64,000 nt of DNA, taken from NCBI GenBank assembly GCA_964524035.1, contig CAZGBP010000006.1, positions 1,773 to 65,772 of the forward strand. Reading direction: 5' to 3'. Position numbers and translations under genes: made by a program. Shown piece by piece: positions 944 through 64,000 of this stretch. The stretch is from an uncultured Bifidobacteriaceae bacterium. Lineage in GTDB: Bacteria; Bacteroidota; Bacteroidia; Chitinophagales; UBA10324. Within the stretch, counting starts at the first letter, position 1, and each line of letters starts with the position of its first letter. A model generated the notes under the pieces. That model had not been told where the DNA came from, did not search any database, and saw only the letters and a program-made list of their open reading frames with translations.

Positions 944-3547
944 ATGAATAGAATCCTTCTCCTGTTTTTCCTACTCCTTTTTACCGTAACCCTGCATGCG
1001 CAAAATCCGGCTGCGGGAAAAAGCGGAAATGGCAGTTCGCGCCAGATGAATACCGGCCGTTTCTATGGAAGAATTCTCGATGAAACTTCAGGCAAAGGTA
1101 TTGAGTTCGCTACCATTCAGCTTTTTGAAACGATTTATGATTCTGTAAAAAAGCAACAGAAAAGAAAATTGATTACCGGTGCTTTAACGGAGGCCAATGG
1201 CGATTTCAGCCTGGAAAATGTTCCTGTAAAAGGCAGTTTTCAGATGCATGTTACTGCCATCGGATATGACTCCCTCAACCAAACCGTAAGATTTGACATG
1301 AAGCCGGGAACAAAACAGCAGATGCTGCTTGCTGATAAGGACCTGGGCAACATAAAACTGAAAGCGCTCGCCATCACACTTTCTGAAGTAGTCGTTACTG
1401 ATGAGGAGCCGATCTTTCAACTGCAGCTTGACAAAAAGGTCTATAATGCAGATAAAGACATCTCCAATGCCGGTGGGACTGCTGAAGATGTTTTAAAGAA
1501 AGTACCTTCTGTATTGGTTGATATTGACGGCAATGTAACCTTGCGCAATGCAGCACCTCAGATTTTTGTTGATGGAAGGCCAACCACACTTACCATCGAC
1601 CAGATTCCTTCAGATGCAATAGAGAAAATTGAAGTAATCACCAATCCATCTGCGAAGTATGATGCCTCCGGAGGACAGTCGGGCATTATCAATATCATTA
1701 TGAAAAAGAGCCGGCGCATCGGATATAATGGCAACCTGAGGGCAGGCATTGATAAACGCGGTAAAGTAAACGGAGGCGGAGACATAAATATTCGTGAAGG
1801 AAAAATCAATGTATTTGCCAACGCCAACTTTAACCAGCGTAAATCCATCAGCTACAGCAATACGGAGCGTTACAACACCTTTGAAGAACCACAAACCAAT
1901 ATTTTCCAGGTAGACACACCTATCAACAATAATCAGTTTCTTTCAGGAAATGCGGGCATCGATTATTTTGTGAACAACAGGAATACCATCACACTCAGCG
2001 GTTCGTATACACAGGGTAAGTTTAATTCAAATGATCAGTTGTTTCTTACCACAGATACGCTTGTTGATGCCGGCATCAGCAGCAGCCAGGCCATCCGAAA
2101 CACCGAAAGTTTCCGTCAGTTTCACAACACCGGCGGTGCATTGCTTTATAAACACCTCTTCCCAAAGGAAGGTAAAACATTAAGCGCCGATTTCAACTAT
2201 AATAAGAGCAAGAGTGACAATAACTCAAACTACCTGACGCAATACTATGATGAACAGGAAAATCCCATTGGCACATTAGGCCGCCAGGAGCAGGAAGGTG
2301 GCGGCAGCAACCGGTATATCACGGTGCAATCAGACTATGTTGATCCTATCTCTGAGGATATGGAGGTTGAAGCCGGCGTACGCGCAGCGCTGCGGAAATT
2401 CGATTCCCGCAATGAGGTATCTGTCTTCGATGATTCACTGAATGAGTTTGTTATTGTACCGGATGTAAATAACTACACGTATAATGACCAGGTATATGCC
2501 GGTTATGCAACCTTTAGCGGCGTGTTTGACAAATTTCAATACAAAGCCGGTTTAAGGGTAGAGAGTTCCTTCTATTCCGGTGTATTGACCGATGCGGATC
2601 AAAGCTATAAAAACAATTTCCCGTTAAGTCTTTTTCCAAGTGGCTCATTAAGCTATGAAGTGAACCAGGAGAATACCTTGCAACTCAACTATAGCCGCCG
2701 CATTGACCGGCCCGGCTTTTTCCAGCTTATGCCATACACTGACTATTCCGATTCACTGAATCTGCAACGAGGAAATCCGGACCTGCTGCCGCAATTTACC
2801 AATACGGTTGAGTTCAACTTTGAAAGAAGCTTTGACAAGTCAAACAGCCTGCTCACATCGGCTTATTTTAAAGGCACTAACAATAAGATTACCCGTTACC
2901 AGGAGTTGGAATATGATTCCATGCTGATGCAAGAAACTATCATCAGCACGTACGAGAATGCCAATTCAAGCTACCTGGTCGGACTAGAACTCACCTCCAC
3001 AAATTCAATAAAAAAGTGGTTCAGCATTTCTACCAATCTCAATCTTTTTCAATCATTTATTGATGGAAGCAATATCGAATCCGGGCTCACTAACAGCCAG
3101 TTTAGCTGGTTTGCAAAAGTAAATGCAACATTTAAGTTGCCTTTGAATTTTACTGTTCAGTTATCCGGTGAATACCAGTCGAAGACCGCCGTACCCCAAA
3201 GCGGCGGCGGAGGTGGTGGTGGCCGCGGAATGGGCGGTGGATTCTTTGGAGCTCCTCCGGCTACCCTGCAAGGTTATGTAGAACCATTGTGGGAGATGGA
3301 TATTTCGGTGAAAAAAGAATTTTTCAAAAACAAAGCCACCGCCACGCTGAGCTTCTCAGATATTTTTGCAACAGACCGGTCTATTACACATTACGATACC
3401 GAGTATTTCACGCAAATTTCTTCACGCATTCGTGACCCACAATTTATTCGTTTGAATTTCAGCTACAAGTTTGGAAAATTTGATTCTTCGATTTTCAAAC
3501 GCAAGAACACCAATGGAGGTGAAATGATACAGGATATGGGTGGTTAG
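944..3547 (+). CDS. TonB-dependent receptor / outer-membrane beta-barrel family protein with an N-terminal carboxypeptidase-regulatory-like domain
   Basis: Signal peptide MNRILLLFFLLLFTVTLHAQ starts at the ATG at 944. FYGRILDETSGKGIEFATIQLFE is a CarboxypepD_reg-like fold. Plug-like segment VPSVLVDIDGNVTLRNAAPQIFVDGRP, a long beta-barrel region, and a C-terminal aromatic-rich strand are present. Confidence 0.85.
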   Translation: MNRILLLFFLLLFTVTLHAQNPAAGKSGNGSSRQMNTGRFYGRILDETSGKGIEFATIQLFETIYDSVKKQQKRKLITGALTEANGDFSLENVPVKGSFQMHVTAIGYDSLNQTVRFDMKPGTKQQMLLADKDLGNIKLKALAITLSEVVVTDEEPIFQLQLDKKVYNADKDISNAGGTAEDVLKKVPSVLVDIDGNVTLRNAAPQIFVDGRPTTLTIDQIPSDAIEKIEVITNPSAKYDASGGQSGIINIIMKKSRRIGYNGNLRAGIDKRGKVNGGGDINIREGKINVFANANFNQRKSISYSNTERYNTFEEPQTNIFQVDTPINNNQFLSGNAGIDYFVNNRNTITLSGSYTQGKFNSNDQLFLTTDTLVDAGISSSQAIRNTESFRQFHNTGGALLYKHLFPKEGKTLSADFNYNKSKSDNNSNYLTQYYDEQENPIGTLGRQEQEGGGSNRYITVQSDYVDPISEDMEVEAGVRAALRKFDSRNEVSVFDDSLNEFVIVPDVNNYTYNDQVYAGYATFSGVFDKFQYKAGLRVESSFYSGVLTDADQSYKNNFPLSLFPSGSLSYEVNQENTLQLNYSRRIDRPGFFQLMPYTDYSDSLNLQRGNPDLLPQFTNTVEFNFERSFDKSNSLLTSAYFKGTNNKITRYQELEYDSMLMQETIISTYENANSSYLVGLELTSTNSIKKWFSISTNLNLFQSFIDGSNIESGLTNSQFSWFAKVNATFKLPLNFTVQLSGEYQSKTAVPQSGGGGGGGRGMGGGFFGAPPATLQGYVEPLWEMDISVKKEFFKNKATATLSFSDIFATDRSITHYDTEYFTQISSRIRDPQFIRLNFSYKFGKFDSSIFKRKNTNGGEMIQDMGG

Positions 3548-3633: not shown

Positions 3634-4854
3634 TTAATTTCTGACGATCGCTCCGTTTGCAAAAAATGATCCCCACCGTATCCGGTAATGATATATTCCT
3701 GGTAAGAGCATGGGCAGGTGGCAGGTAATTATTCCGGAAGCAAAAAATTCTTCGGTATGCACGATCCTTCCCAATACATCAGCTAACTCTAAATGAATGC
3801 CGGCAACAGGTGCTGGTGAAATCCTGAATTGCAGCAAATCAGAAAAGGGGTTGGGATACGCTTTTACCAATACTGCCTCATTTAAGTTCGCCGTTGTTCC
3901 GGTTGTTTGAAACTCCAGGAAGGCAAGTAATGGCAAATGATCCGACGCTGCATGAAGGGCATTGGCCATTTCATCTCCCACTGCGGTATTTGGCGGCCTG
4001 TTAATAGAATCGTTGTAATGGTTGCCATCGTTGCCAAAGGAAACCGTACTGCCGGCAATATAGGATATCCCTCCCTGCTCCATCACTGCATTGCTGAACA
4101 ACAACATATCAAACCGGTCATCGAGGCCTCCCACTACGCCGCCGCCAAAACTGCGAACCCTTGGAGATTGGGTATGGTATTTCGCATATGACGGGTTGTT
4201 GAATACCCCGCTGATCAGTAAGGGGTCCTGCACATTTCCATCATCGGTTACATTGTTTTGCAGAAGCTTCTGGTAAGCCACTTCATTGGTATTGTAAATA
4301 TTAAAATCACCACATACGATGAAATCGGTACCATCCGGTAACGCATTGGTACGTTTTCGAAGGCTATCCACTTCCGATGCACGTTGCGCTTCATCGCTAG
4401 CGGATGAACTGGCTTTTAAATGTACCGCATACAGTATTAAGGTATCCCCGCTTGCTTTATGCACTACCTTGAATTCGTTAATATCGCGCAGATCCGTTTT
4501 AATGGCGTAGTTGCTGATAAAACTGAACTTTTCCTTTCGGTAGATCAGTGCTTTATTCGTATCAAATCCTGTAATGAATGTACCGAGCGAATAAATATCG
4601 GCTGAGTCATTCATTACATGTGCTACAAATCCGAGTATGCCCTGGTAGGCCTTCACTTCTTCGCAAACCAGTAAGTCAGGCTGAAGTGCCTGCATGATTT
4701 TTCTGAAATGCGGATTGCGTATGGCGGTGTCTGCCTGAATACCTTCATAGTTTAACAGGTTGTAAGCAACAAGCCTTATGGTTTCCTGCGCTTTCGATAA
4801 TCCCGGAAGTAATAGTAACCACAGCAACATAATGCTGACTATCCGCTTTTGCAT
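3634..4854 (-). CDS. endonuclease/exonuclease/phosphatase (EEP) family protein with a T9SS C-terminal sorting domain
   Basis: Signal peptide MQKRIVSIMLLWLLLLPGLSKAQ at the ATG at 4854. EEP motifs are LVAYNLLNY, VCEE, GDFNIY and SDHLPL. The C-terminus AYPNPFSDLLQFRI...GIYHYRI is typical of T9SS cargo. Confidence 0.8.
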   Translation of the reverse strand: MQKRIVSIMLLWLLLLPGLSKAQETIRLVAYNLLNYEGIQADTAIRNPHFRKIMQALQPDLLVCEEVKAYQGILGFVAHVMNDSADIYSLGTFITGFDTNKALIYRKEKFSFISNYAIKTDLRDINEFKVVHKASGDTLILYAVHLKASSSASDEAQRASEVDSLRKRTNALPDGTDFIVCGDFNIYNTNEVAYQKLLQNNVTDDGNVQDPLLISGVFNNPSYAKYHTQSPRVRSFGGGVVGGLDDRFDMLLFSNAVMEQGGISYIAGSTVSFGNDGNHYNDSINRPPNTAVGDEMANALHAASDHLPLLAFLEFQTTGTTANLNEAVLVKAYPNPFSDLLQFRISPAPVAGIHLELADVLGRIVHTEEFFASGIITCHLPMLLPGIYHYRIRWGSFFANGAIVRN

Positions 4855-4967
4855 AAGCGGAAAATTACAGCTTTTATTTTCCGAATGAAGGCATGAGAGT
4901 TTCCGGCTTAGATTCTTTATTGTAAACATCAATTTGTTTGCGAACTTTATACTCCTTATAAATCCCC

Positions 4968-5954
4968 ATGACAGAACCGGATATATCAACCCAGGTTGTT
5001 ACCTATGCCGCGGCGGAGTCACCACCGGCCTTTTCATGGGATGACTGGTATGCATCCATAGGTGGCCGCAAGATTGATATACCGGAAGTAAATGAATACC
5101 TGGATAAAATTTACAACGACCAGTACCTCCGGTTTGAAGGCATTACAGCGCCTCACAAAACCGCCTTCGCAGATACGGAAGCTGCAGCAAAACTCATTAA
5201 AGAAAAGGCGGAATCCTTTGGTGCCGATATTGTCGGTATCTGTGAAATTGAACCTTCCGATATTTATAAAGGAAAAACGGTGACTGAAAAATATGCCATC
5301 GCAGTAGGACAACGGATGCGCTGGAGGGCATTCCAGGTAGTGCCTTCCAAAGAGGCAGCCATTGAATGCCTGCGCATTTATTATACGCTTGGCGAAACGG
5401 TTATTGCATTGGCAAATTTCATCCGCTCGCTGGGATATAACTGCAAAGTGGAGCATCCGATTGGAGACAGTGATGTGCTCCATATACCCATAGGTCTTAA
5501 AGCAGGATTTGGAGAACTGGGGCGTCATGGTTCCATCATCCATCCAAAGCTGGGACCATTGTTTCGCATGGGAAGCGTAATCACTTCTTTACCTATGGCT
5601 ATTGATCATCCGGTTGATGCTGGTATTGCAGCCTTCTGTGATAATTGCAGGGCATGCAGAATTTATTGTCCGGCTAAAGCGATCCCCGACGAACGCAATG
5701 CAGCTTCCGGGAAAGACCATCTGGGCAACGACCGCTACCAGGTAGATACAGGCAAGTGTTTCCCTTACTTTGCAACACATTATTACTGTTCAGCCTGTTT
5801 GCCGGTCTGCGTTTACAATCACAAAGAATGGGCTAAAGACTTTGAAGGATTCGAAACGAAGCTGTTTCCAAAAGTAATTATGGAAGATCCTCCGCCTCCA
5901 GCAGATGATATCGCTGTTGATAAGCGTCATGAATATCCCCGGGTGAAACGTTGA
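4968..5954 (+). CDS. 4Fe-4S dicluster protein of the reductive-dehalogenase / epoxyqueuosine-reductase superfamily
   Basis: Cluster motifs CDNCRACRIYCPAKAIP and CSACLPVCVYN. The N-terminal part AAKLIKEKAESFGADIVGICEI resembles RdhA/QueG-type proteins. No twin-arginine signal is visible. Confidence 0.65.
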   Translation: MTEPDISTQVVTYAAAESPPAFSWDDWYASIGGRKIDIPEVNEYLDKIYNDQYLRFEGITAPHKTAFADTEAAAKLIKEKAESFGADIVGICEIEPSDIYKGKTVTEKYAIAVGQRMRWRAFQVVPSKEAAIECLRIYYTLGETVIALANFIRSLGYNCKVEHPIGDSDVLHIPIGLKAGFGELGRHGSIIHPKLGPLFRMGSVITSLPMAIDHPVDAGIAAFCDNCRACRIYCPAKAIPDERNAASGKDHLGNDRYQVDTGKCFPYFATHYYCSACLPVCVYNHKEWAKDFEGFETKLFPKVIMEDPPPPADDIAVDKRHEYPRVKR

Positions 5955-11803: not shown

Positions 11804-14017
11804 TTAAAATGAACCGGAAACCGAAATGTAAGCGCCAATACCTTTGGTACTAAATCCTCTTATCTCGGTATACGATGCATTAAGCAGATTTTCTACTTTG
11901 AATGCACACGTAAAATGGCTGTTAAAAGTATACCTCATCAACAGATCCACTAAAAAATAGTCTTGCAGCGGAACCGTATTTAGTGCCCCGTAAGGACCCA
12001 AGGCATAGTCGTAGTAAATATCGTCGTAACTGCTTGTCCACTTGCCACTAAGACGAACACTTGCCTTTTTGAAAGGAGTAACCACTACGCCGGCGTTCAC
12101 TGTGCTTGGCCGGCGCACCAGCCCTTCTGTACCTGATTCAGTGGCAGGAAAAGCTCCGTTGCTGTACAGTTGCACATGATTTCCTTCCGTATGCGTGGTG
12201 TCCAGATCATTCGCTGAATAAGACAATTTACCGTTCACATAGCTGAGGTTACCATCAACCGATAGCCACTTTTTCAATTGTGCAGAAAAATAGGCATCCA
12301 CGCCCATGCTCTGTTGTTTGCCGGCATTCACGTAGGTATCGCCCCGGTAATCATCCCTGTAAAAATCCGTACCTAACTCCTCAATCGGAATATTCTTATC
12401 CCACAGGTAAACATACTCAATCGAATTGCTGACGATCGTTGAATACAAGGAAATTCCATAGCTGATTTGTTTGCCGGGGAAAAATTTCACCCCCAATTCC
12501 ATGGCATGCGAATACTCGGGATGCAGGTATGGGTTGCCCCTGGTAATTTCAGAAGTATAATAAAAATCCGGTGCATACAGCTGGTAGAGGGAAGGTGCGT
12601 TAAACCCGGTGGCATACGAAGCAAATACGCGGGCAACGTCACCTATCCTGTAAGATGGATTTAATTCATACACGATCGTGCTTCCAAATAAATCATGATA
12701 GTTGAAACGTGCTCCGGCAATAATGTTCCAGTTCTTCATTGCCGGTGAAATGGCTTTGCCATCCAGATCCAATTGCACAAATGCATTAAACAGGGAGGCA
12801 TTCAATCCAAGGGTATCAAGATTACTTACACTTTCATACTGGAAGGAACCGTTATAGTAATGTGTTCCCGACGTCATCGTCTCCACATCGGCACCAATTC
12901 CGGCAGTGAGTCTCATTTCACTGAACCTGTAATCTCCTGTCAATTCAGTATGGAACTCTGCACCTTCATAGCGGCCATCTGCAAAAGTATGGTCATTGGT
13001 GCCCACAGCATCAATCACCGATGAATCATCAATCGTGCTCCGGTAAAGTGTTGAATAACCTCCTGAAAACTTAAGATCGAAATTCTTTACCGGCATATAG
13101 CCTATATTGAAAACGGCGAAGTTTCTTTTGGTGAAGATGCGTGTGCTGTCGCCATCATACAGGCTGGTGGGTATATCATATGAACGGTATTTATAGCCGG
13201 CCTTGTCAAAATCCGCAGCACTGTTGGTATAACTGTAGGTCCCCACTACATTCCATCGGTCATTGATGAATCCTGCTTTTCCGGAAACCTGCTGCTGGCT
13301 GAAGTCGTCCTGATCGAAACTTCTGAAATTTGCTGATTCATCGGAGGTATCTATTGTCGCATCGAGCCCATGAATACTGCTGTTGAAACCATCAATCATT
13401 GCATAGATGCCATTTTTAAAGGTGTAACTCAGGGATACCTGTTCCTGCAATTGTGAAGTGCCGGAGCCAAACATTCCGCCCAATACCGTTGCCCCTGCAT
13501 GTAACCCTGCGGGTTGTTTTTTCTTTGTAATGATGTTAACGACCCCTCCGATGGCGGAAGATCCATACAACGTGCTGTGCGATCCGCGTACGATTTCTAC
13601 CTGCTCAATATTACTGAGTGGCAGTTCACTCAGATCAACGGCATTGTTGGTCGAAGAAGGGTCGCTGAACGGCACGCCATCAATCAGGATCACCGTTTGG
13701 TTACTTCCGGTTCCACGCATAAACATACTTTGCGTCATTCCGGGGTTCTGATTGGTGCCGATTACTGATATCCCGGCATAGTCGCCTAATAGTTCAGCAA
13801 GGGACTTTGCGCCAGTGCGCTGTATTTCTACGCGGGTTATTACAGTGACCTCTCTACCGATGGTGTTTACTTCCTTTTCCGTGCGTGTTGCAGTTATAAT
13901 CACTTCAGGAATATCCTGAACGGCTATGGTATCCTTGATTTGTGCCTGCAGGGACTGAAACATCCATAACAAACCGATGGTAAGCAGCAATCTTGATGAC
14001 AAAAAAGTTGATTTCAT
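11804..14017 (-). CDS. btuB: TonB-dependent receptor, BtuB-like (vitamin B12 / corrinoid outer-membrane transporter)
   Basis: Signal peptide MKSTFLSSRLLLTIGLLWMFQSLQAQ at the ATG at 14017. TonB-box/plug region IPEVIITATRTEKE and IEQVEIVRGSHSTLYGSSAIGGVVNIITKK, and a terminal F. A cobalamin riboswitch lies directly upstream. Confidence 0.8.
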   Translation of the reverse strand: MKSTFLSSRLLLTIGLLWMFQSLQAQIKDTIAVQDIPEVIITATRTEKEVNTIGREVTVITRVEIQRTGAKSLAELLGDYAGISVIGTNQNPGMTQSMFMRGTGSNQTVILIDGVPFSDPSSTNNAVDLSELPLSNIEQVEIVRGSHSTLYGSSAIGGVVNIITKKKQPAGLHAGATVLGGMFGSGTSQLQEQVSLSYTFKNGIYAMIDGFNSSIHGLDATIDTSDESANFRSFDQDDFSQQQVSGKAGFINDRWNVVGTYSYTNSAADFDKAGYKYRSYDIPTSLYDGDSTRIFTKRNFAVFNIGYMPVKNFDLKFSGGYSTLYRSTIDDSSVIDAVGTNDHTFADGRYEGAEFHTELTGDYRFSEMRLTAGIGADVETMTSGTHYYNGSFQYESVSNLDTLGLNASLFNAFVQLDLDGKAISPAMKNWNIIAGARFNYHDLFGSTIVYELNPSYRIGDVARVFASYATGFNAPSLYQLYAPDFYYTSEITRGNPYLHPEYSHAMELGVKFFPGKQISYGISLYSTIVSNSIEYVYLWDKNIPIEELGTDFYRDDYRGDTYVNAGKQQSMGVDAYFSAQLKKWLSVDGNLSYVNGKLSYSANDLDTTHTEGNHVQLYSNGAFPATESGTEGLVRRPSTVNAGVVVTPFKKASVRLSGKWTSSYDDIYYDYALGPYGALNTVPLQDYFLVDLLMRYTFNSHFTCAFKVENLLNASYTEIRGFSTKGIGAYISVSGSF

Positions 14018-14050
14018 GATGAGTGTTTTCAAAGGTGTTACCCGCACCGG

Positions 14051-14108
14051 AAATAATAAAAACCACAGGAAAAGAAATGAGTAGGTAATGCTCATCGCTG
14101 CTTTTTCC
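14051..14108 (-). terminator. possible riboswitch expression-platform hairpin followed by a T-rich tract
   Basis: The minus strand reads GGAAAAAGCAGCGATGAGCATTACCTACTCATTTCTTTTCC then TGTGGTTTTTATTATTT. It lies between the aptamer and the btuB ATG. The stem is imperfect. Confidence 0.35.
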
Positions 14109-14125
14109 CGAAGCATCAATCAGGT

Positions 14126-14307
14126 GTTGCAAGGCAGGTCTTCTGACTCTTCCGGATTTTAGCGGCCTTCCCATCCCTGCAATCAGGACAGTGGCAGTGG
14201 AGGCTAAAACTTTTACTGGCTGTGCCAGCGGAAATACAGCAGCGGGAACTGTCTCCGGTTTTCACGGAGTTCCCTTTTAATCCCGAAAATTTCGGGAACC
14301 ATGCAAC
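14126..14307 (-). ncRNA. cobalamin (B12) riboswitch aptamer
   Basis: The minus strand reads GTTGCATGGTTCCCGAAATTTTCGGGATTAAAAGGGAACTCCGTGAAAACCGGAGACAGTTCCCGCTGCTGTA...GCCACTGTCC...GGGAAGGCC...AGTCAGAAGACCTGCCTTGCAAC. These are the conserved GGTTCCC / AAAAGGGAA / GTGAAAA-CCGG blocks and the B12 box. GTTGCA...TGCAAC closes P1. Confidence 0.85.
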
Positions 14308-14533
14308 GCTGTGAAGGTATTATTTTTTCATAATAAATAGCAACACCCGGCTATGCCGCATTACTACACCTTAACAGTTTATATGAAAAAAAACCGCCTG
14401 CAACATCCGGTTAATTAAGATGCTTTGCCAATTGTTAAAACGTAACAAATAACGGTAACGGATTTCTGATACCTGCAAAAACGGTGTTTACCTCTCGGCA
14501 TATCAATTGATAGAATTACTTTTAGCCGCTGAA

Positions 14534-34827: not shown

Positions 34828-34894
34828 TCCATAGAAACACGATAGGCAAAAGAACAAATCCAGGCAAAACACATTCCACTCATACACCACCTAA

Positions 34895-34944
34895 CAATTT
34901 AACAATGAAGCAATTTAACCATTTTGCCATTTAACCATTTGACC
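34895..34944. repeat. ATTTAACC-type 8-bp microsatellite patch
   Basis: CAATTTAAC at 34895, then ATTTAACC ATTTTGCC ATTTAACC ATTTGACC at 34913-34944. This is the same unit as inside the dispersed element, without its flanks. Confidence 0.8.
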
Positions 34945-35048
34945 AATACTACAAAACCCTTACTACTCAAAAAACTCCCCTTCCCTTTCCCCACCGCCCA
35001 AGTTATCCACACATTGCAAACACCCCTATTTTCATAGAGGAAGTACTC

Positions 35049-40507: not shown

Positions 40508-43393
40508 ATGAAAGCAATTGCTAATTATGCAATATCCATTTTCATTAGTGGTCTTCTATTAATCAGTAAATCTTCAATCGGACAAGTTTCAGATGAACAA
40601 TGGATGAAAAGAGGTTCGCTGGATGTTGCAGGATTCAAAGAAAACAAAGGGCAGATATTAACTACTGACAACCGCATAAGCCAGGAGGTACTGTATATCT
40701 ATTCAGCAAAAGATTTCAACCTGGCCTTAAAGAAGAAAGGGTTCAGCTATGAGTTGACCGGTCACAAAGTACCTCCCTCCATTTCAGAGGCCTATGGAAA
40801 AAAATTAACGGAACCGGATGGTACCCCTTCCCGGGTTTCAGGCGAAGCAGCCACACAGGTTGAGCGGTTTGATGCCACGTTTATTGGTGCATCACAAAAT
40901 TGCACCCTGGTTGCTTCTGTGCAATTACCGGGTTATGCGAATTACTACACAAGCAATCAAACTGCCCCGGTTACCGGTGTACGGTCTTTTAAGGAAATCA
41001 CGTATCACAATCTCTATCCCAATATCGACCTTGTATTTATTGCACCGGCCGATTGTACTGAAACGCTCCGTTATCAGTATGTGGTGTGGCCGGGCGGCAA
41101 CCCAAATCATATCCGTATAAGATACAATACCTTCCATCAGGTTCGCATTGTAAACAATTCGCTTGTGATAGAAGGCAGCCTTGGATTTATTAATGAAGCG
41201 CGGCTATTTGCTTACCAGGAAGATAAGAAACAGGCGATTCAATCTTCATTTAAGCTGAAAGCGAATGAATTATCATTTCAAACAGGGAGATACGACAGCA
41301 AACGAATCCTCATTATTGATCCGGATATTGTCTGGGGTACCTATTACGGTGACGACTTCAGTGATGATAATGCAAAAGAAATTGAAACCGATGCAGAAGG
41401 AAACATCTTGGTTACCGGAGAAACAGCAAGCACCGCAAACTTCACTACGGAAGGCGCATTTCAAACCACGTTCGGAGCCGGGAAATATGATGCCTTTATT
41501 ATGAAATGGAGCCCGGATGGCAACCGAATCTGGGTCACTTATTATGGAGGTAACGACAGGGAATGCGGCTTTGGACTGAAAACGGATGATGAATCAAATG
41601 TGTACTGCACCGGTGATACAAGAAGCATGCATCTTTACCTGCTCAACCCGCACCAACCCACGTTTGGCGGTATAGTAGATGTATTCATGCTCAAGCTCGA
41701 TAAGAATGGACTGCTGCAATGGGCTACCTATTATGGTGGCGCTGCGGAAGATCATAACGACGGGGGCATCTGTCTTGATCAGTTTGAAAACGTCTATGTA
41801 TGTGGCTGGACTGAAAGTTTTGAAAATATCTCCACCCCCGGCTCACATCAACCTGATAAAGGAATGATTATGGACGCCTTTCTTGCAAAATTCAATAGCA
41901 ATGGAACAAGATTATGGTGCACTTATTATGGCGGTGATGATGAGGACCGGGCGCACAGCCTTTCACTGGATCGCGATAACAACGTTTACATGACCGGCAC
42001 TACTCCCAGCTATAACAACATTGCGACACCGGGTACAACACAACCCTATTGCGGCGGGGCACTGGATATTTTTCTTATAAAATTCACTACAGATGGCCAG
42101 CGTATCTGGGGCACCTACTACGGTGGCGCCGATAACGAACATGGAAGAGAATCTGCAATGGATGATGCAGGATTATTTTACATGACCGGTTATACCACCA
42201 GTGAATACAACATAGCAACACCTGACGCCTATCAGCGCAACTGGGCTACCGGTTATACCAATGAGGGTGCAAAGAACCCGGATGCCTGCCTGGCGATGTT
42301 TGATGCCAATGGCATTTTGGTATATGGAACCTACCTGGGCGGAACCGGTGCAGACTATGGAAGGGCATTAAAACTTGAACCGGAGGGTTCGATATTAATG
42401 GTTGGCAGTACACAGAGTACGGGCTTAGGAACTACAGGCGTTTATCAGAAATTAAAATCCAATGGCAAAGATGCCTTTATGGCCAAATTCAGCGGCAATG
42501 GCATGTTAATATGGTTTACGTATGTAGGTGGTAATGGCACCGATGAAGGAGAAGAGATGGCCGTTGACAGCTATAACAACATCTATATTACCGGAACTAC
42601 CAACAGCACACTTGGCATTGCCACACCCGGAGCTTTTAAAGATTCCCTTTCCAACAATACGGTGGATGATGTCATGATCCTCCGGTTTTTTGACCGGTGC
42701 TTTGATAAATTTGAAACAAATAACAGTGCCAAAACAGCGACTGCTCTTACCATCCCGGAAAGTAATTTTCTGCAGGTAAATGCAGAAATTGGTGTAGCAG
42801 GCGACAAAGATTTTTATGCTTTTGGAAATACTGCAGGCAATTCCGCCATACAGATTCAGTTAAGCAACTTACCTGCTGACTACAACCTCTATCTGCTTGG
42901 AACCAATGGGAAGCAGGTAGCTAAATCCGTTTTGCCTGGTGTTGCTGATGAAGAGATACTTTACCAAACCACGATAGTCGGAACATACAAAGTGAAAGTG
43001 CAGGCAGCAAATACGGCCGTATTTAATGATACTGTTTGTTATGATCTTTTAATTTCATTAATCCAGCCCTCACTGCGTGTCGGAATAGAAACAGATGAAA
43101 ATGCAGATACCGCTTCGCCGCATTTTAATTTTGAAAATCCTGAAATTGAAGATGCCTTTCAGGTCTATCCCAATCCTGCCACCTCACAGGTCTATCTTGA
43201 ATCGCAGGAGTATGCGGTTACCGATATGGGCGTCCAGGTTTTTGACATGCTGGGCAGGCTGACCTTTGAAAGACTCAGCATACCGTGTTCTTCACTCGCC
43301 ATAGATGTAAGCGGATGGAGTGAAGGCGTTTACCTGCTTTTGATAAGGCATGATGATAAGAAATTCGCTCAGAAGCTCCTGATCAGCAGGTGA
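40508..43393 (+). CDS. SBBP (beta-propeller) repeat protein with a PPC-like domain and a T9SS C-terminal sorting domain
   Basis: Repeated units of the form W.TYYGG...D.G..I..D..GN.Y.TG.T.S.....T.GA.Q occur about 8 times. GDKDFYAF is a pre-peptidase C-terminal-like domain. The tail is VYPNPATSQVYLE...GVYLLLIRH. Confidence 0.8.
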   Translation: MKAIANYAISIFISGLLLISKSSIGQVSDEQWMKRGSLDVAGFKENKGQILTTDNRISQEVLYIYSAKDFNLALKKKGFSYELTGHKVPPSISEAYGKKLTEPDGTPSRVSGEAATQVERFDATFIGASQNCTLVASVQLPGYANYYTSNQTAPVTGVRSFKEITYHNLYPNIDLVFIAPADCTETLRYQYVVWPGGNPNHIRIRYNTFHQVRIVNNSLVIEGSLGFINEARLFAYQEDKKQAIQSSFKLKANELSFQTGRYDSKRILIIDPDIVWGTYYGDDFSDDNAKEIETDAEGNILVTGETASTANFTTEGAFQTTFGAGKYDAFIMKWSPDGNRIWVTYYGGNDRECGFGLKTDDESNVYCTGDTRSMHLYLLNPHQPTFGGIVDVFMLKLDKNGLLQWATYYGGAAEDHNDGGICLDQFENVYVCGWTESFENISTPGSHQPDKGMIMDAFLAKFNSNGTRLWCTYYGGDDEDRAHSLSLDRDNNVYMTGTTPSYNNIATPGTTQPYCGGALDIFLIKFTTDGQRIWGTYYGGADNEHGRESAMDDAGLFYMTGYTTSEYNIATPDAYQRNWATGYTNEGAKNPDACLAMFDANGILVYGTYLGGTGADYGRALKLEPEGSILMVGSTQSTGLGTTGVYQKLKSNGKDAFMAKFSGNGMLIWFTYVGGNGTDEGEEMAVDSYNNIYITGTTNSTLGIATPGAFKDSLSNNTVDDVMILRFFDRCFDKFETNNSAKTATALTIPESNFLQVNAEIGVAGDKDFYAFGNTAGNSAIQIQLSNLPADYNLYLLGTNGKQVAKSVLPGVADEEILYQTTIVGTYKVKVQAANTAVFNDTVCYDLLISLIQPSLRVGIETDENADTASPHFNFENPEIEDAFQVYPNPATSQVYLESQEYAVTDMGVQVFDMLGRLTFERLSIPCSSLAIDVSGWSEGVYLLLIRHDDKKFAQKLLISR

Positions 43394-43571: not shown

Positions 43572-45827
43572 ATGAAAAACTCAATCTTTATTGCATTGCT
43601 GCTGTTGAGCAGTTGTTTATATGCCTCTGATGTGACCGGAATAAAAGTAGTGCGCAACAGCGGCCAGGTATTCATTACCTGGAAAGGCGATGTGTCAAAA
43701 GAGTACACAATTTATCGCACTACCTACAAGATTACCGCAACAACAGGGTGGCCCGCTGCCGGCTTTGGCAAGTCTCCGGCTTACTCCACCAAAAATGTAC
43801 GGTTCAGCGAGTTGGTAACAGATGGTACCAGGTACTTCCGGGTGCCTGATGGCAGTTCAGGTGCAACCGTTTTACTGGATCCTGCTGCCGGCTATGGGGG
43901 TCTTTTCGTGTTGGCCTGCACCGGCACCAGCGGAGCAAAATATTTCTATGGCGTTAAGATGACCGGTTCCGCCGATCAGCCTGTTCCCGGAGATAATGTT
44001 ACGGCTGCAGGAACCAAGGATGTCATTGCAACTCCTAAACCCATTTTGCAGGAAAGCCTGAACCTTGACCAGGTTCCCGGAAATGATATGGACGTTTATG
44101 TACATTTTGCAACTGCCGTCGTACCAACCGGTTCGAAGAAAATGATGAATGCCGGATTCTTCGATTTTATTGGATTTAATTTTGGCGTGGTGCCCTTCAA
44201 AAATGTTGGCAGTGTATCTCCGCATCCATTGATTGTTAAACTACATGCCGGAGGTGGAAACTTTATCGAAGATGGCATGAGTGTAAGTAACGAAGCCAAT
44301 TCCGCCTACAAGCTTTGCCTCGACGACTGGTTGCCGAACGGGGAATCTACCTGGTGGTTTGGTTACAACGAAAAGTATGACCTCAGCAAACCACATGTTA
44401 AACTAACCACCTTACCTCCCACCTGCGACGATCCCTGCAGATTGGATGATCCAACCTGTCATGGCAGCAATTATGGCTATACCTTTCAGAGAATACTGTA
44501 TTCCATTGAACAGGTGAAAACGATGTACAATAAATCACCCAATACCAACCCCAATGATGATATCAGCAACAACAAAGTTTCCTTAACAGGACGATCGATG
44601 GGCGGTGGTGGTGGTATGCTGGCAGCCATGCTTGCACCGGATGTATTTTCATGCATAGCGGTCATCGTTCCGAAGATGGATTTCAGTTTTCCTTACGATC
44701 AGTCGCTGGAAATCTGCGCATGGAACTTTGATTTGGAAGCCGAAGCGCTGGCTGCACCGTGCTACGATTTTGACCTTTATTATATTACCCGTGAACGGAT
44801 AAATGCCAAGTGGGGAACTGTTACTGCCAACTGGCCATCGGATGTTACTGATCCAAACAATGCCGGTGTTTATTATTCTACCTATGACCTGCTGAATGCA
44901 GGATTCATGACGGCATCTGTCACGCAGGCAAACAAAGACCTGCCCATCATTTTTGCCTATAGCGGCAAAAATGACAGTGGCCAGGGGTGGGAAGAAAAAC
45001 TTCCTGTCTATGATTCGATGAACACGCACAGGCAGCCCGGAATTTTCTTCTGGGACCAGGGCGAACATAAAAATCCAATGTATTGGAATTTTGGCGAATC
45101 CATCACACTGGAAGATCTTACCAGGTACTCCAGCAAACAAGCTTATCCCGCTTTCAGCAATTGCAGCATCAACGACCTACCCGCAACGGCTCCTGAAGGA
45201 ACCATCAACGGTTTCTTTGACTGGGATGAAAATTCCATCATAGATGAAAAAACAAACTTCAGCATACAGCTGAAATGGAGAACATTGAAAACCATTACCG
45301 GCGCTACGGTACAACCCGACAATGCAACGATGACGACCGACATCAGGCTCAGGCGGCAAAAATTTCCAGGTACCTATGCAGGCCCGGTCTGCTGGACATT
45401 AACAAACCTCACCACTTCCGCATCCGTTAGCGGTGAAAGCTTTGTACCCTATGCAAACGGACCCGTGGATATCAACAACATATCTTTACATTATCCTGAT
45501 AAGTATCAGTTAACAATCACCAATACCTCATGTAAAAGCAGTGAGGTTACCATTGCTGCAAACTATTTCAGTTGCATTCAAAACGTCTATCCGAATCCGG
45601 TAACCAACAGCATTTCCATTGAGTTGCTGGCTATTGAAAAGGAACCGTATCATGTTACCGTGTTTGATATCTATGGAAATAAAATATACCATGCTGTAAT
45701 TCAAAATGAGGAATCGGGACTTACTACCGTGAAGCTAAACAGCGGTGATTGGCAGGCAGGCGTGTATATTCTGGAAGTGAAAACAGCCAATGAAAGGACC
45801 ATTCGGGAACTCGTAAAAGTGGAATAG
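43572..45827 (+). CDS. secreted alpha/beta-hydrolase-like protein with a T9SS C-terminal sorting domain
   Basis: Signal peptide present. Nucleophile-elbow motif in VSLTGRSMGGGGGMLAAM (GxSxG). The C-terminal tail is VYPNPVTNSISIELL...GVYILEVKT. The rest is unassigned. Confidence 0.65.
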   Translation: MKNSIFIALLLLSSCLYASDVTGIKVVRNSGQVFITWKGDVSKEYTIYRTTYKITATTGWPAAGFGKSPAYSTKNVRFSELVTDGTRYFRVPDGSSGATVLLDPAAGYGGLFVLACTGTSGAKYFYGVKMTGSADQPVPGDNVTAAGTKDVIATPKPILQESLNLDQVPGNDMDVYVHFATAVVPTGSKKMMNAGFFDFIGFNFGVVPFKNVGSVSPHPLIVKLHAGGGNFIEDGMSVSNEANSAYKLCLDDWLPNGESTWWFGYNEKYDLSKPHVKLTTLPPTCDDPCRLDDPTCHGSNYGYTFQRILYSIEQVKTMYNKSPNTNPNDDISNNKVSLTGRSMGGGGGMLAAMLAPDVFSCIAVIVPKMDFSFPYDQSLEICAWNFDLEAEALAAPCYDFDLYYITRERINAKWGTVTANWPSDVTDPNNAGVYYSTYDLLNAGFMTASVTQANKDLPIIFAYSGKNDSGQGWEEKLPVYDSMNTHRQPGIFFWDQGEHKNPMYWNFGESITLEDLTRYSSKQAYPAFSNCSINDLPATAPEGTINGFFDWDENSIIDEKTNFSIQLKWRTLKTITGATVQPDNATMTTDIRLRRQKFPGTYAGPVCWTLTNLTTSASVSGESFVPYANGPVDINNISLHYPDKYQLTITNTSCKSSEVTIAANYFSCIQNVYPNPVTNSISIELLAIEKEPYHVTVFDIYGNKIYHAVIQNEESGLTTVKLNSGDWQAGVYILEVKTANERTIRELVKVE

Positions 45828-51782: not shown

Positions 51783-51994
51783 CCGGGTGTCCGGCAAAAT
51801 GGATATAGATTATTGGGACAAATAAGTAGGCGAGTAAAGTAGCGTAGTGAGTACAGAATAGCAAGTGACCGGCTTCGCCGCAGCAATTTAACCATTTAAC
51901 CATTTAACCATTTAACCATTTAACCATTTAGCCATTTAGCAACTTAACCCACCAACCATTGCCTTACAAGATCAACGAAATGCCCTACACCCGG
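51783..51994. repeat. dispersed intergenic element, copy B, with an expanded 8-bp microsatellite
   Basis: Homologous to 32824-32990. Termini are CCGGGTGT (51783-51790) and ACACCCGG (51987-51994). The internal tract is ATTTAACC x5 plus three degenerate units at 51886-51949. Confidence 0.85.
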
Positions 51995-60858: not shown

Positions 60859-62355
60859 ATGGCATTCTCAGCACCTGCAAAATCAACAGGCGGTACAGCA
60901 AATACCGGCGACACAAACTACCAACCCGCCCTGGTGGTGCTTACTTCACTTTTCTTTATGTGGGGTTTTATAACCTGTCTGAATGATATCCTGATACCAC
61001 ACCTGAAGACCATCTTCGATCTTACGTATACCCAGGTTATGTTTGTACAGTTTACCTTTTTTACTGCCTATGCCATCGTATCATTGCCATCCGGTATACT
61101 GGTAGAGAAGATTGGTTATAAAATGGGAATCATTGCCGGCCTGCTGACTGCGGCAACGGGGACGGCATTATTCTATCCTGCAGCCGGATACCGTTCCTAT
61201 GAAATCTTTCTCTTAGCACTATTTGTGCTGGCTTCCGGCATCACGCTGTTGCAGGTAGCGGCAAACCCCTACGTAGCCATCCTCGGTAAACCGGAAACAG
61301 CATCCAGCAGGCTCAGTCTCTCGCAGGCATTTAACTCACTTGGAACTACCGTTGCTCCCATTATTGGTTCGATTCTGATACTTTCCGTAGCAGTTAAAGG
61401 TGCTGATGAACTGGCAAAACTTTCATTGGCTGATCAGGAAGCTTACAAGCTGACTGAAGCAACCGCTGTGCAAACTCCTTATTTAATATTGACAGGCATG
61501 CTGGTCCTGATAGCCATCATCATTGCACTCTTTAAGTTACCCAGGATTGAAACGGCATCACCGTCGCCGGGTTTACCCGCAGAAGGAAATTATGAGCATC
61601 AGCAAAAAAGCGCATGGGGTTACCGTCATCTGGTATTAGGGGCCATCGCCATTTTTGTATATGTAGGCGGAGAGGTTGCCATCGGCAGTTTCCTGGTAAA
61701 TTATTTCAAGGAGCTTTTGAATATGCAGGAAGCGGAAGCGGGAACCTACGTGGCTTTGTATTGGGGCGGTGCGATGATCGGGAGATTCTTCGGTTCGATC
61801 ACGCTCTCCGGAATGACCGATAGCAAAAAGAAAAACAGGTATACCGTATTGGTATTTGTGCTGGCTTTTGCCCTTGCCCTGTATATAACAAAAGAGTATC
61901 AAAGCTTTGCCTCCTTTTCATTTGCCGGATTCAGCAAGACAATCACCTTCCTTGTCTTAGTAGCTTTGAATTTCTTCGCATTTAATTTAGGAAAACAAAA
62001 GCCCGGAAGAACACTTGCTATTCTGGCTTTCTGTGCTGCCACCTTAGTCGTTATTTCCATGCTCACAAACGGGCAGTTGGCCATGTGGAGTATCTTAAGT
62101 GTCGGACTATTCAACTCCATCATGTTTCCAACCATTTTTACGCTGGCTATAGATGGACTTGGCAAGCATACAGGACAAGCTTCGGGAATTCTATGCACAG
62201 CCATTGTGGGTGGAGCAATCATTCCGGTTATTCAGGGCGTGTTTGCAGATAACATAGGTATACACCATGCTTTCATATTACCGGTACTGTGTTATCTGTA
62301 CATCGCCTTCTACGGAATCAAAGGACACATTCCGGCAATGAACAAGGCTACCTGA
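60859..62355 (+). CDS. sugar MFS transporter (FucP / glucose-galactose transporter family)
   Basis: The N-terminal region [23 protein letters not shown] is typical of the FucP/GluP subfamily. 12 TM-like segments. Confidence 0.85.
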
Positions 62356-62386
62356 TCAGTTGCATCAACATGTATTTAATTATATA

Positions 62387-62825
62387 GTAACCACAGAACA
62401 CTCCGAGAAAAATACACATAGATCTTGTCTGATGCGACTCCCCCTCTGTGCCCTCTGTGGTTTCAAAAAAGGTAACCATAGCGAGCATCAATAAATATAC
62501 TTATAGATATTGTCTGATGTTATTCCGCCTTTGTGTTCTCTGTGGTTTCAAAAATGATAAACACAAAGAACAGAAAAAAAATACGCATAGCTCTTGTCTG
62601 ATGCAACTCCGACTTTGTGTTCTCCGTGGTTTCAAATATGGCAAACACAGCGAGCATCAATTAATATACCTATAGATATTGTCTGATGTTATTCCGCCTT
62701 TGTGTTCTCCGTGGTTTCAAAAATGGTAACCACAAAGAACAGAAAAAAATACGCATAGCTCTAGTTTGTTGCAACTCCGCCTTTGTATTCTCAGTGGTTT
62801 CAATAATGGTAACCACCGTGCACGC
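62387..62825. repeat. tandem array of five ~85-bp units (two alternating subtypes, effective period ~170 bp) plus a truncated sixth
   Basis: Units read directly at 62387-62471, 62472-62555, 62556-62640, 62641-62725 and 62726-62808. The shared block is TTGTCTGATG..CTTTGTGTTCTCYGTGGTTTCAAAAATGGTAACCACA. Junctions form inverted repeats. Confidence 0.9.
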
Positions 62826-62966
62826 AAAGTTAGCAAAGCACTAAGCTAGTTCACAACCCTGTACCATGTATATGGGATTGACCTGCGCCCTTCTGAGCGC
62901 TATCATTGCATTTTTTCTACCCCTCATAATTCAAACAATCAAACAATGAAACAAAACAACAACTGC

Positions 62967-64000
62967 ATGAAAATGAAACTCAATACGCTGATCGTTACAA
63001 TGCTTTTTACTGTCTTACTTTCTATCCCTGCTGCAAAGCTAATGGCACAAAATGCAAACACGGCCCTTTCCAATCTAGTCTCGCCAACAGCAGTAAATAA
63101 ATCACTGCTACCCAATTCCGACAATACGTTGGATTTCGGTTCTTCCACCAAAGCATGGAAACATATATACCTCGACGGATCAATCTATATGGACGGAATA
63201 CGATTTCTATCCAATGGTGACAATACCAATAACGCATTCGTAGGTTACAATGCAGGGAAGTATACAACAAGTAGTGGAAACTCCTTTATGGGCGCCTACT
63301 CAGGATATTTAAATACAAGCGGTCATGACAATACCGGTATCGGATATTTTTCTCTTTACAACAATGCAATCACCTATCAGAATACTGCTGTTGGATCGCT
63401 ATCCTTATTTACACTATATGGCGGATACTACAATACCGCCATCGGATTCAGTGCCCTGTTTAATAATGCCACCGGTTTTTACAATACTGCCGTAGGTGCA
63501 CAAGCCTTAGAACTAACGGAATCATCAGGCAATACAGCCATCGGTGAACGTGCCGGAGCCATTTATGAAAACGGATGGGGCTGCACTTTTGTCGGACAAC
63601 AAAACTGGGCAAATGCCAATGGCTATGCTTATTCCATGAGCCTTGGATACAATGCCCGCATCACAGCAAGCTACCAGACAAGAATTGGAGATGCAACCAC
63701 TACTTCCATTGGCGGCTATGCCAGCTGGACAAAAATTTCAGACAGTCGTGTAAAAAAAGATATTAAAGAAGATGTGCCCGGATTATCATTCATCAACAAG
63801 TTGAAACCGGTTACTTATCATCTCGATATGAATCAAATTGATGCCTTCATGAATCCTGATAAAGACAAATATCCCGTAAGAGAAACAGCCAAAGAAGAAG
63901 CACTGGCAAAACAATCCGGATATGATGCTAAAGGCAGCATACTGGAAACAGGTTTTCTTGCGCAGGACGTAGAAAATGCCGCCAAAGAACTCGGCTACGA
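62967..64000 (+). CDS. secreted tail-fibre-domain protein with YadA-head-like repeats and an S74 intramolecular-chaperone domain; 3' end lies outside the window
   Basis: Missing from the ORF track because there is no stop in the window. My translation gives the signal MKMKLNTLIVTMLFTVLLSIPAAKLMAQ and repeats of NTAIG/NTAVG/NTGIG type. It then reads SDSRVKKDIKEDVPGLSFINKLKPVTYHL...ETGFLAQDVE, the S74 chaperone-of-endosialidase pattern. An upstream in-frame ATG at 62946 is an alternative start. Confidence 0.75.
   Translation, partial: MKMKLNTLIVTMLFTVLLSIPAAKLMAQNANTALSNLVSPTAVNKSLLPNSDNTLDFGSSTKAWKHIYLDGSIYMDGIRFLSNGDNTNNAFVGYNAGKYTTSSGNSFMGAYSGYLNTSGHDNTGIGYFSLYNNAITYQNTAVGSLSLFTLYGGYYNTAIGFSALFNNATGFYNTAVGAQALELTESSGNTAIGERAGAIYENGWGCTFVGQQNWANANGYAYSMSLGYNARITASYQTRIGDATTTSIGGYASWTKISDSRVKKDIKEDVPGLSFINKLKPVTYHLDMNQIDAFMNPDKDKYPVRETAKEEALAKQSGYDAKGSILETGFLAQDVENAAKELGY

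Follow-up and report, generated by a model that had tools for sequence, protein, structure and literature searches.

The tandem array at positions 62387-62817 of the window, by which we mean the whole 64-kb stretch of DNA analysed here, probably represents one site of a dispersed family of non-coding, palindromic repeats found in Chitinophagaceae. The best reading is an interspersed palindromic repeat similar to BIMEs and REPIN clusters or to BOX elements, which grows and shrinks by recombination or slippage between its units, and judging from the alleles compared, the array is a rapidly evolving minisatellite (VNTR) whose building block is an inverted-repeat module. A comparison of orthologous sites showed that gains and losses of whole units, singly or in blocks, have occurred over short evolutionary distances. 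The array defines a repeat family of Chitinophagaceae which is unannotated and whose members here come from metagenome-assembled genomes (MAGs).

The array consists of five head-to-tail units of 84-85 bp followed by an extra 5′ arm, GTAACCACC at 62809, which corresponds to a sixth start of a ninth of a unit (Table 1). The truncated sixth start and the five units had been described in an earlier note on this DNA, and the five units were recovered both by Tandem Repeats Finder, which reports a period of 85 at 62408-62816 (4.8 copies, 77% matches), and by a repeat search, which found five in-register copies of 74 nt with starts at 62406, 62491, 62575, 62660, and 62743 and thus a spacing of 85/84/85/83. 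The two alternating subtypes with a period of about 170 bp that the note had proposed were likewise confirmed, as a period of 169 at 62408-62803 (2.4 copies) reaches 88% matches vs 77% for 85, and 169 bp is therefore taken as the higher-order A/B period of the array. In pairwise comparison the units differ at 6-24 positions: units 2 and 4 at 6 positions, units 3 and 5 at 12, and unit 1 at about 21 from each other unit, which agrees with the note's ranking of units 2 and 4 as close and units 1, 3, and 5 as more diverged. In the B-type units of the window, most of the 5′ arm has been lost. Within the 64-kb window, the array is the only place in which the 36-nt 3′ block, the 23-nt junction, or TTGTCTGATG occurs, the chance expectations being 0, 0, and 0.19, respectively. 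The claim that no meaningful open reading frame (ORF) is present also stood: ORFs through the array do not exceed 75 aa, the period is not divisible by 3, and the frame changes with each unit. Either strand can be translated into small basic peptides, but a coding function was rejected because neither start codons nor frames are conserved.

Table 1 Features of the array and its flanks in the window
Feature	Position	Strand	Remarks
FHS-family MFS sugar (fucose-type) transporter gene	60859..62355	+	upstream flank
Unit 1, divergent A-type	62387..62473	+	5′ arm GTAACCACAGAACAC, core AAAATACACATAGATCTTGTCTGATGCGACTCC, 3′ arm CCCTCTGTGCCCTCTGTGGTT, linker TCAAAAAAGGT; same sequence in L049, L056, L052
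Unit 2, B-type	62474..62558	+	5′ arm decayed to AACCATAGCGAGCATCAAT
Second junction hairpin, unit 2/unit 3	62530..62576	.	-14.6 / -16.1 kcal/mol (fold of 62527-62579)
Unit 3, A-type	62559..62642	+	
Unit 4, B-type	62643..62727	+	
Strongest junction hairpin	62699..62745	.	unit 4 3′ arm + linker + unit 5 5′ arm; fold of 62696-62748: -17.3 kcal/mol (+), -19.5 (-), z -5.1 and -4.1
Unit 5, A-type	62728..62808	+	core mutated to TAGTTTGTTG
Terminal extra 5′ arm	62809..62817	+	GTAACCACC
Promoter-like TTGACC-17-TATCAT	62878..62906	+	consensus match only; between array and S74 gene
Peptidase_S74-domain gene	62946..64000	+	downstream flank; gene cut by window end

The units of the family are about 85 bp long and are composed of four pieces: a purine-rich 5′ arm, (G)GTAACCAC-RRAG-AACAC..., a conserved core of about 40 nt, AAATAC-CAT-ATCTTGTYTGATGC-AYTCC, a pyrimidine-rich 3′ arm, CCTTTGTGTTCTCYGTGGTT, which is the inverted complement of the 5′ arm, and an A-rich linker, TCAAAAAWGG. 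Within an array the order is 3′ arm, 11-nt linker, 5′ arm, core of about 45 nt, 3′ arm, and so on, i.e. the inverted arms are separated alternately by short (11 nt) and long (about 45 nt) spacers, and the arrays of the family carry a 5′ arm at both their beginning and their end. The whole unit including the core is well conserved between arrays on different contigs, which could reflect constraint rather than youth. The earlier note had also predicted a hairpin of 6 bp, two mismatches, and 6 bp at the junctions. Such a hairpin is indeed predicted at the two B→A junctions (-14.6 to -19.5 kcal/mol, z -3.3 to -5.1), the strongest one containing two C.A mismatches on the plus strand which correspond to G.U pairs on the minus strand, whereas the A→B junctions are weak or no different from shuffles (62611-62663: z -1.4 and -0.3). 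Strong hairpins are limited in the window to the two B→A junctions because the 5′ arm of the B-type units is mostly lost. Over 33 non-redundant units, 74.0% of the cells of the 16-bp junction helix are paired on the plus strand and 81.8% on the minus strand, and since sliding of the partner arm reduces pairing to 31-57%, the inverted repeat is regarded as real. Resemblances to DnaA boxes, IHF sites, attC, parS, CRP sites, and sigma-54 promoters that were noticed by eye were dismissed, as either the spacing or key bases differ from those expected.

Orthologous loci from six other assemblies were found via near-identical transporters, and their flanks are conserved (left 87/89; right 224/263 to 248/249). 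The window (transporter 100%) shares a between-flank length of 423 bp and five units with L049 and L056, whose transporters are 99.8 and 99.4% identical to that of the window. The allele of L050, which belongs to the MAG JADJAG01 (transporter 97.4%), measures 764 bp and comprises nine units in the order A, six B in a row, A′, and a decayed terminal unit. Among the loci with a transporter identity of 95.6%, L052 and L054 have 422 bp and five units (A-B-A-A′-terminal), and L053 has 506 bp and six units, one B unit more than L052; the transporter proteins of L053 and L052 are identical. In L021 (transporter 94.4%) the array is absent, with only a degenerate half-unit in its place (nhmmer E = 0.17), and the downstream gene is another one than at the window locus. 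Transporter orthologues at a greater distance (84-85% identity) lack the array and stand beside other genes, and two short-read contigs (L051, L055) stop inside the array. Close relatives thus carry 0, 5, 6, or 9 units at the same locus, which directly supports the suggestion of the note that the array is a recombination-prone satellite, and gain and loss of this kind between close relatives is what unequal recombination or slippage among the repeats would be expected to leave behind. In the process envisaged, units standing head-to-tail in intergenic DNA, with inverted arms that alternate with short and long spacers, would be gained and lost when they recombine unequally with one another or when replication slips between them, the hairpins probably assisting these events, and the outcome would be a variable-number minisatellite with higher-order periods such as the 169 bp of the window. 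Any effect of the array would presumably be generic, e.g. exerted by hairpins that form towards the 3′ end of the transcript of the upstream transporter gene, as has been proposed for REP/BIME.

Evidence that the family is dispersed came from an exact 20-mer scan with GTGTTCTCYGTGGTTTCAAA of 185,579 species genomes (one genome per species), which yielded four loci (L009, L010, L011, and L013) in a single Chitinophagaceae MAG, JADJAG01. Going by the 97.4% identity of the transporters and by the names in the transporter cluster, this MAG and the window are of the same genus-level lineage; in the 90% identity cluster that contains the window transporter, the named members are MAGs of Chitinophagaceae or Chitinophagales. 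The copy numbers determined with Tandem Repeats Finder are 3.6+2.5 for L009, 2.5 for L010, 9.4+2.7 for L011, where the 2.7-copy array is inverted relative to the 9.4-copy array, and 11.4 for L013, so that at least four further intergenic sites of JADJAG01 harbour arrays, which range from 2.5 to 11.4 copies. A junction-pattern search added five further arrays on short metagenome contigs, the short metagenome contig L029 shows a higher-order period of about eight units, and in total 69 units were recovered with nhmmer. The flanking genes differ at every locus and are unrelated to S74 (neighbours include aldehyde dehydrogenase, DUF1579, LuxE-like, response regulator, SPOR, TPR, and PolB-type exonuclease genes), and the orientation of the arrays relative to the flanking genes is the same in four arrays and opposed in two. 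The unit is thus not restricted to the locus in the window. The statement of the note that no family with this sequence has been described agrees with the Rfam, BLAST, and literature string searches: BLASTN in 'distant' mode gave no match of the array to plasmid and phage records, and literature searches by sequence strings and by Chitinophagaceae/Bacteroidetes repeat families returned nothing relevant. A scan of viral contigs with the 17-mer CTCYGTGGTTTCAAAAA gave single matches only and no arrays; these were not accepted as family members, as their flanks lack the unit or 9-mer repeat context and they apparently arose by chance. The arrays of the family offer ready-made VNTR markers for strain tracking in metagenomes. 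Further tandem repeats occur in JADJAG01 and in the window: a second family in JADJAG01 (L011 246-796; 191 bp x 2.9, 96% matches) has arms of the same style made of other 8-9-nt words (CGCGAAGAC / GTCTTGGCG), and the window contains octamer repeats (ATTTAACC)x8 at 51886-51949 and a weaker copy at 34892-34945, with a related (ATGGTTAA)n run at L052 5504-5557.

The arm motif, TTAACCAC(RRAGNNCAC)n, i.e. TTAACCAC followed by two or three 9-nt words (RRAG-NN-CAC) with a complement ending in GTGGTT(T/A)(C/A)AAA, is also found in many phage contigs as well as in MAGs from at least seven further phyla. It is present as hairpins, solos, or MITE-like elements in MAGs of Planctomycetota (Phycisphaerae, Kuenenia), Thermodesulfobacteriota, Nitrospirota, Anaerolineae, Gemmatimonadaceae, and Kiritimatiellia (L003 6512-6748; L015, L016, L017, L020; L004; L006, L012; L007, L008, L014, L018, L019). 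An inverted ACCAC-RRAG partner was found in Phycisphaerae (L006, L012), Kuenenia (L004), and Thermodesulfobacteriota, and in the last of these the arms form the inner part of terminal inverted repeats of about 30 bp in a dispersed, MITE-like element of about 240 bp. The scan matches L001, L002, and L005 were set aside, as they look like chance matches in coding sequence; all other scan matches in other phyla lie within runs of the 9-nt word CTYYGTG-NN that end in GTGGTTTCAAA. A search of IMG/VR phage contigs with TAACCACRRAGNNCACRRAG (L057-L176) gave at least 120 loci vs 46 for a composition-matched scramble. Among the 134 unique phage matches listed, a third word not requested by the search is present in 97 and a T precedes the motif in 106, whereas the inverted partner occurs in only 13. 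In L120, a lambda-like phage contig, the motif at 3389, 5740, and 8686 lies with conserved flanks in frame (FNHGGHGEHGG) within long ORFs, adjacent to a lambda-type portal gene, whose codon-position GC is coding-like on both sides of the motif. Other tandem repeats of 7-9 nt, e.g. (AACTTAAA)n, often follow the phage motif, and an ORF-distance test for its location upstream of genes was not discriminating in these GC-rich contigs. It is tentatively possible, on the strength of these motif matches, that the arms belong to an undescribed and very widespread sequence class across phyla and phages. If all these sequences were one family, conserved machinery or a mobile agent would recognise the motif or spread it across phyla and their phages, the minisatellite of Chitinophagaceae would be its tandemly amplified form, and the motif would point to a common recognition or mobility mechanism as yet undescribed.

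Several alternative explanations concern the role of the array at its locus and its possible transcription. Of the transporter-S74 gap, for which the note had given 610 bp, both flanking genes were confirmed, but the size is 590-617 bp; the S74 ORF has candidate starts at 62946, 62967, and 62973. The array begins 31 nt after the transporter stop codon and ends about 130 nt before the S74 start codon, and the promoter-like site lies 3′ of it, which would place the array outside the likely transcript of the S74 gene. That its copy number tunes or phase-varies the expression of the downstream S74 tail-fibre-like surface protein, as its variability and its location upstream of this gene might suggest, is therefore very unlikely, all the more as the same unit stands beside unrelated genes in the sister genome and as L052 retains the array although its S74 gene is truncated to about 35 codons. 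The link to the S74 protein made in the note is thus not upheld, and most likely the array has no dedicated regulatory job for this gene. The neighbouring genes in the window are GH43, TPM, MFS, and S74, and at 40508-43393 and 43572-45827 the window encodes two large proteins whose C-termini carry T9SS sorting domains (Por_Secre_tail), which agrees with an origin of the window in Bacteroidota. The region just 3′ of the array is a rearrangement hotspot, and the array marks a synteny breakpoint: L021 has a different secreted-protein gene at the downstream position (4787-5121), and in L052 (5100-6500) the truncated S74 gene is followed by a tRNA-like gene and a 21-bp x 4.9 repeat (5601-5702). An array of small structured RNAs had been proposed as well, and transcription of each unit or of the whole array from the minus strand into small hairpin RNAs would be consistent with the better family-wide pairing of this strand, with one internal stem position that is C.A on the plus strand in 22 of the 33 units and G.U on the minus strand, and with more stable minus-strand folds (family-wide hairpin energy -13.8 vs -11.8 kcal/mol, p = 0.002; whole unit -20.4 vs -15.4 kcal/mol). 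This advantage hints at a single-stranded RNA or ssDNA form, but it was not seen in the window's own array. Covariation and compensatory changes in the junction helix are no higher than in column shuffles (132/500 and 178/500 reach the observed score), an all-against-all screen of column covariation gave uninformative noise, and RNAalifold returned an empty consensus for the 33 non-redundant units on both strands. Rfam, searched at gathering and E<=10 with the array region and at gathering with 15 related loci, produced nothing beyond sub-threshold, miRNA-like hairpin matches, a tRNA, and a cobalamin riboswitch outside the array; no intrinsic-terminator-like site was detected in 62200-63100. 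The near -7 boxes which the note had seen on the minus strand exist as strings, CATTTTTG and CATATTTG, at the junctions and resemble the Bacteroidota -7 box, but their key A is not conserved across the family, roughly half of the units having a T instead. On the minus strand at 62836-62843, a perfect Bacteroidota-type -7 box, TAACTTTG, reads into the array from the right flank; it is kept in L052, mutated to TAACTTTA in L050, and absent beside all other arrays, and was rejected as a family promoter because it is locus-specific. Searches for a promoter box common to the array flanks and for a conserved TAnnTTTG inside the units or in the flanks were negative. The small-RNA interpretation is consequently regarded as improbable. 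A cobalamin riboswitch (Rfam RF00174, 102.8 bits) was identified elsewhere in the window, at 14116-14318 (-), directly upstream of a TonB-dependent receptor ORF (11804-14119, -).

Other alternatives concern the nature of the unit itself. The units might be binding sites for a nucleoid-associated, insulator, or iteron-type protein that the array titrates or organises. Conservation between arrays extends to both arms and to the core ATCTTGTTTGATGC-AYTCC, and the arm motif recurs across phyla, as would suit such sites; E. coli BIMEs bind IHF and gyrase (reviewed in PMC2817692). Copy number, however, varies freely, down to zero, between close relatives, the B-type units are kept despite the loss of their 5′ arm, and neither a candidate protein nor an adjacent regulator or rep gene was found (no rep gene among the window ORFs examined), so that this proposal, too, has a low probability. 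[quoted passage not shown] Its imperfect terminal inverted arms of 16-20 bp, the solo remnant in L021, and the Thermodesulfobacteriota element, which has the same arms inside its terminal inverted repeats and sharp, differing flanks, would be expected for such an element. The arrays, however, end in an extra 5′ arm and not in a 3′ arm, target-site duplications were not detectable, full solo copies and a transposase were not seen, and block duplication accounts better than independent insertions for the higher-order periods and for the series of near-identical B units. Being regular, of short period, and non-coding, the array could in principle also be a CRISPR array, a ToxI-like repeat of a type III antitoxin, or an artefact of assembly, but this has a negligible probability: the units are not identical, the identical 423-bp allele was assembled independently in L049 and L056, related alleles are present in four other assemblies, the 'spacers' are homologous to one another, and an adjacent cas or toxN-like gene is absent. 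The interspersed palindromic repeat that expands and contracts by recombination or slippage thus remains the preferred reading.

To our knowledge, palindromic interspersed repeats are well studied in Proteobacteria but barely in Bacteroidota, and with its conserved core, higher-order periods, and rapid turnover the family represents a new system for studying the spread and the host use of such DNA. Tandem arrays of small RNA genes are exemplified by NsiR1 in Anabaena. With NsiR1-type arrays and ToxI the array shares short tandem non-coding units upstream of a gene, but those units have their own promoter and terminator or are processed by the adjacent ToxN, none of which was found at the array; ToxI/ToxN was also rejected because the downstream gene encodes a Peptidase_S74 protein and the other arrays of the family precede unrelated genes. 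A CRISPR assignment fails because the inter-repeat segments are homologous both within the array, as in units 2 and 4, and between genomes. The MIRU-VNTR loci of Mycobacterium tuberculosis are tandem arrays of 40-100 bp units at many intergenic loci with polymorphic copy number (cited in PMC3184786), and the array resembles them in its tandem intergenic units, in a same-locus copy number that differs between relatives, and in its conserved flanks. MIRU units, however, contain small ORFs which overlap the flanking stop and start codons and are not palindromic, neither of which is true of the array, and membership was rejected in view of its distances from both codons and of a period that does not preserve the frame. 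MITEs such as Chunjie of Geobacter and Correia of Neisseria are small and AT-rich, with terminal inverted repeats and a stable RNA fold (PMC3184786, PMC10969869). The unit is likewise small and AT-rich with terminal inverted repeats, the arms pairing at 74-82% in register, but in contrast to MITEs it forms head-to-tail arrays; target-site duplications and solo full copies were not seen, and the arrays end in an extra 5′ arm and not in a short duplication. BOX elements of Streptococcus pneumoniae are modular non-coding repeats with predicted stem-loops and with one module present in a variable number of tandem copies (PMC3184786); the array corresponds to them in all these respects, whereas sequence similarity and end modules of the boxA/boxC type are absent and it is the whole unit that is reiterated. 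BIMEs of E. coli, which are made of REPs, and the REPIN clusters of Pseudomonas fluorescens are intergenic, dispersed, and hairpin-forming (PMC2817692, PMC3116915). A REP is an imperfect palindrome of 20-40 bp with its own stem-loop and a tetranucleotide GTAG or CGTC at its foot (PMC3733652), whereas the arms GTGTTCTCYGTGGTT and AACCACAAAGAACAC of the array are not self-complementary and pair with each other across the 11-nt linker or the core of about 45 nt, and the tag is GTAA in most units (GGTAACCAC), with GTAG only in a few units of L011 and L027. As the arms are not palindromes, the GTAG/CGTC tag is absent, and no RAYT (TnpA-REP) gene was seen among the window ORFs examined, the family was not assigned to REP/BIME, from which the conserved core of about 40 nt and the Bacteroidota host also set it apart. 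What the array has in common with BIMEs and REPIN clusters is its architecture, i.e. tandemly reiterated inverted repeats with alternating orientation and linker types, two alternating kinds of spacer, hairpins, and two alternating subtypes, and like many of these elements it is located just after a stop codon.
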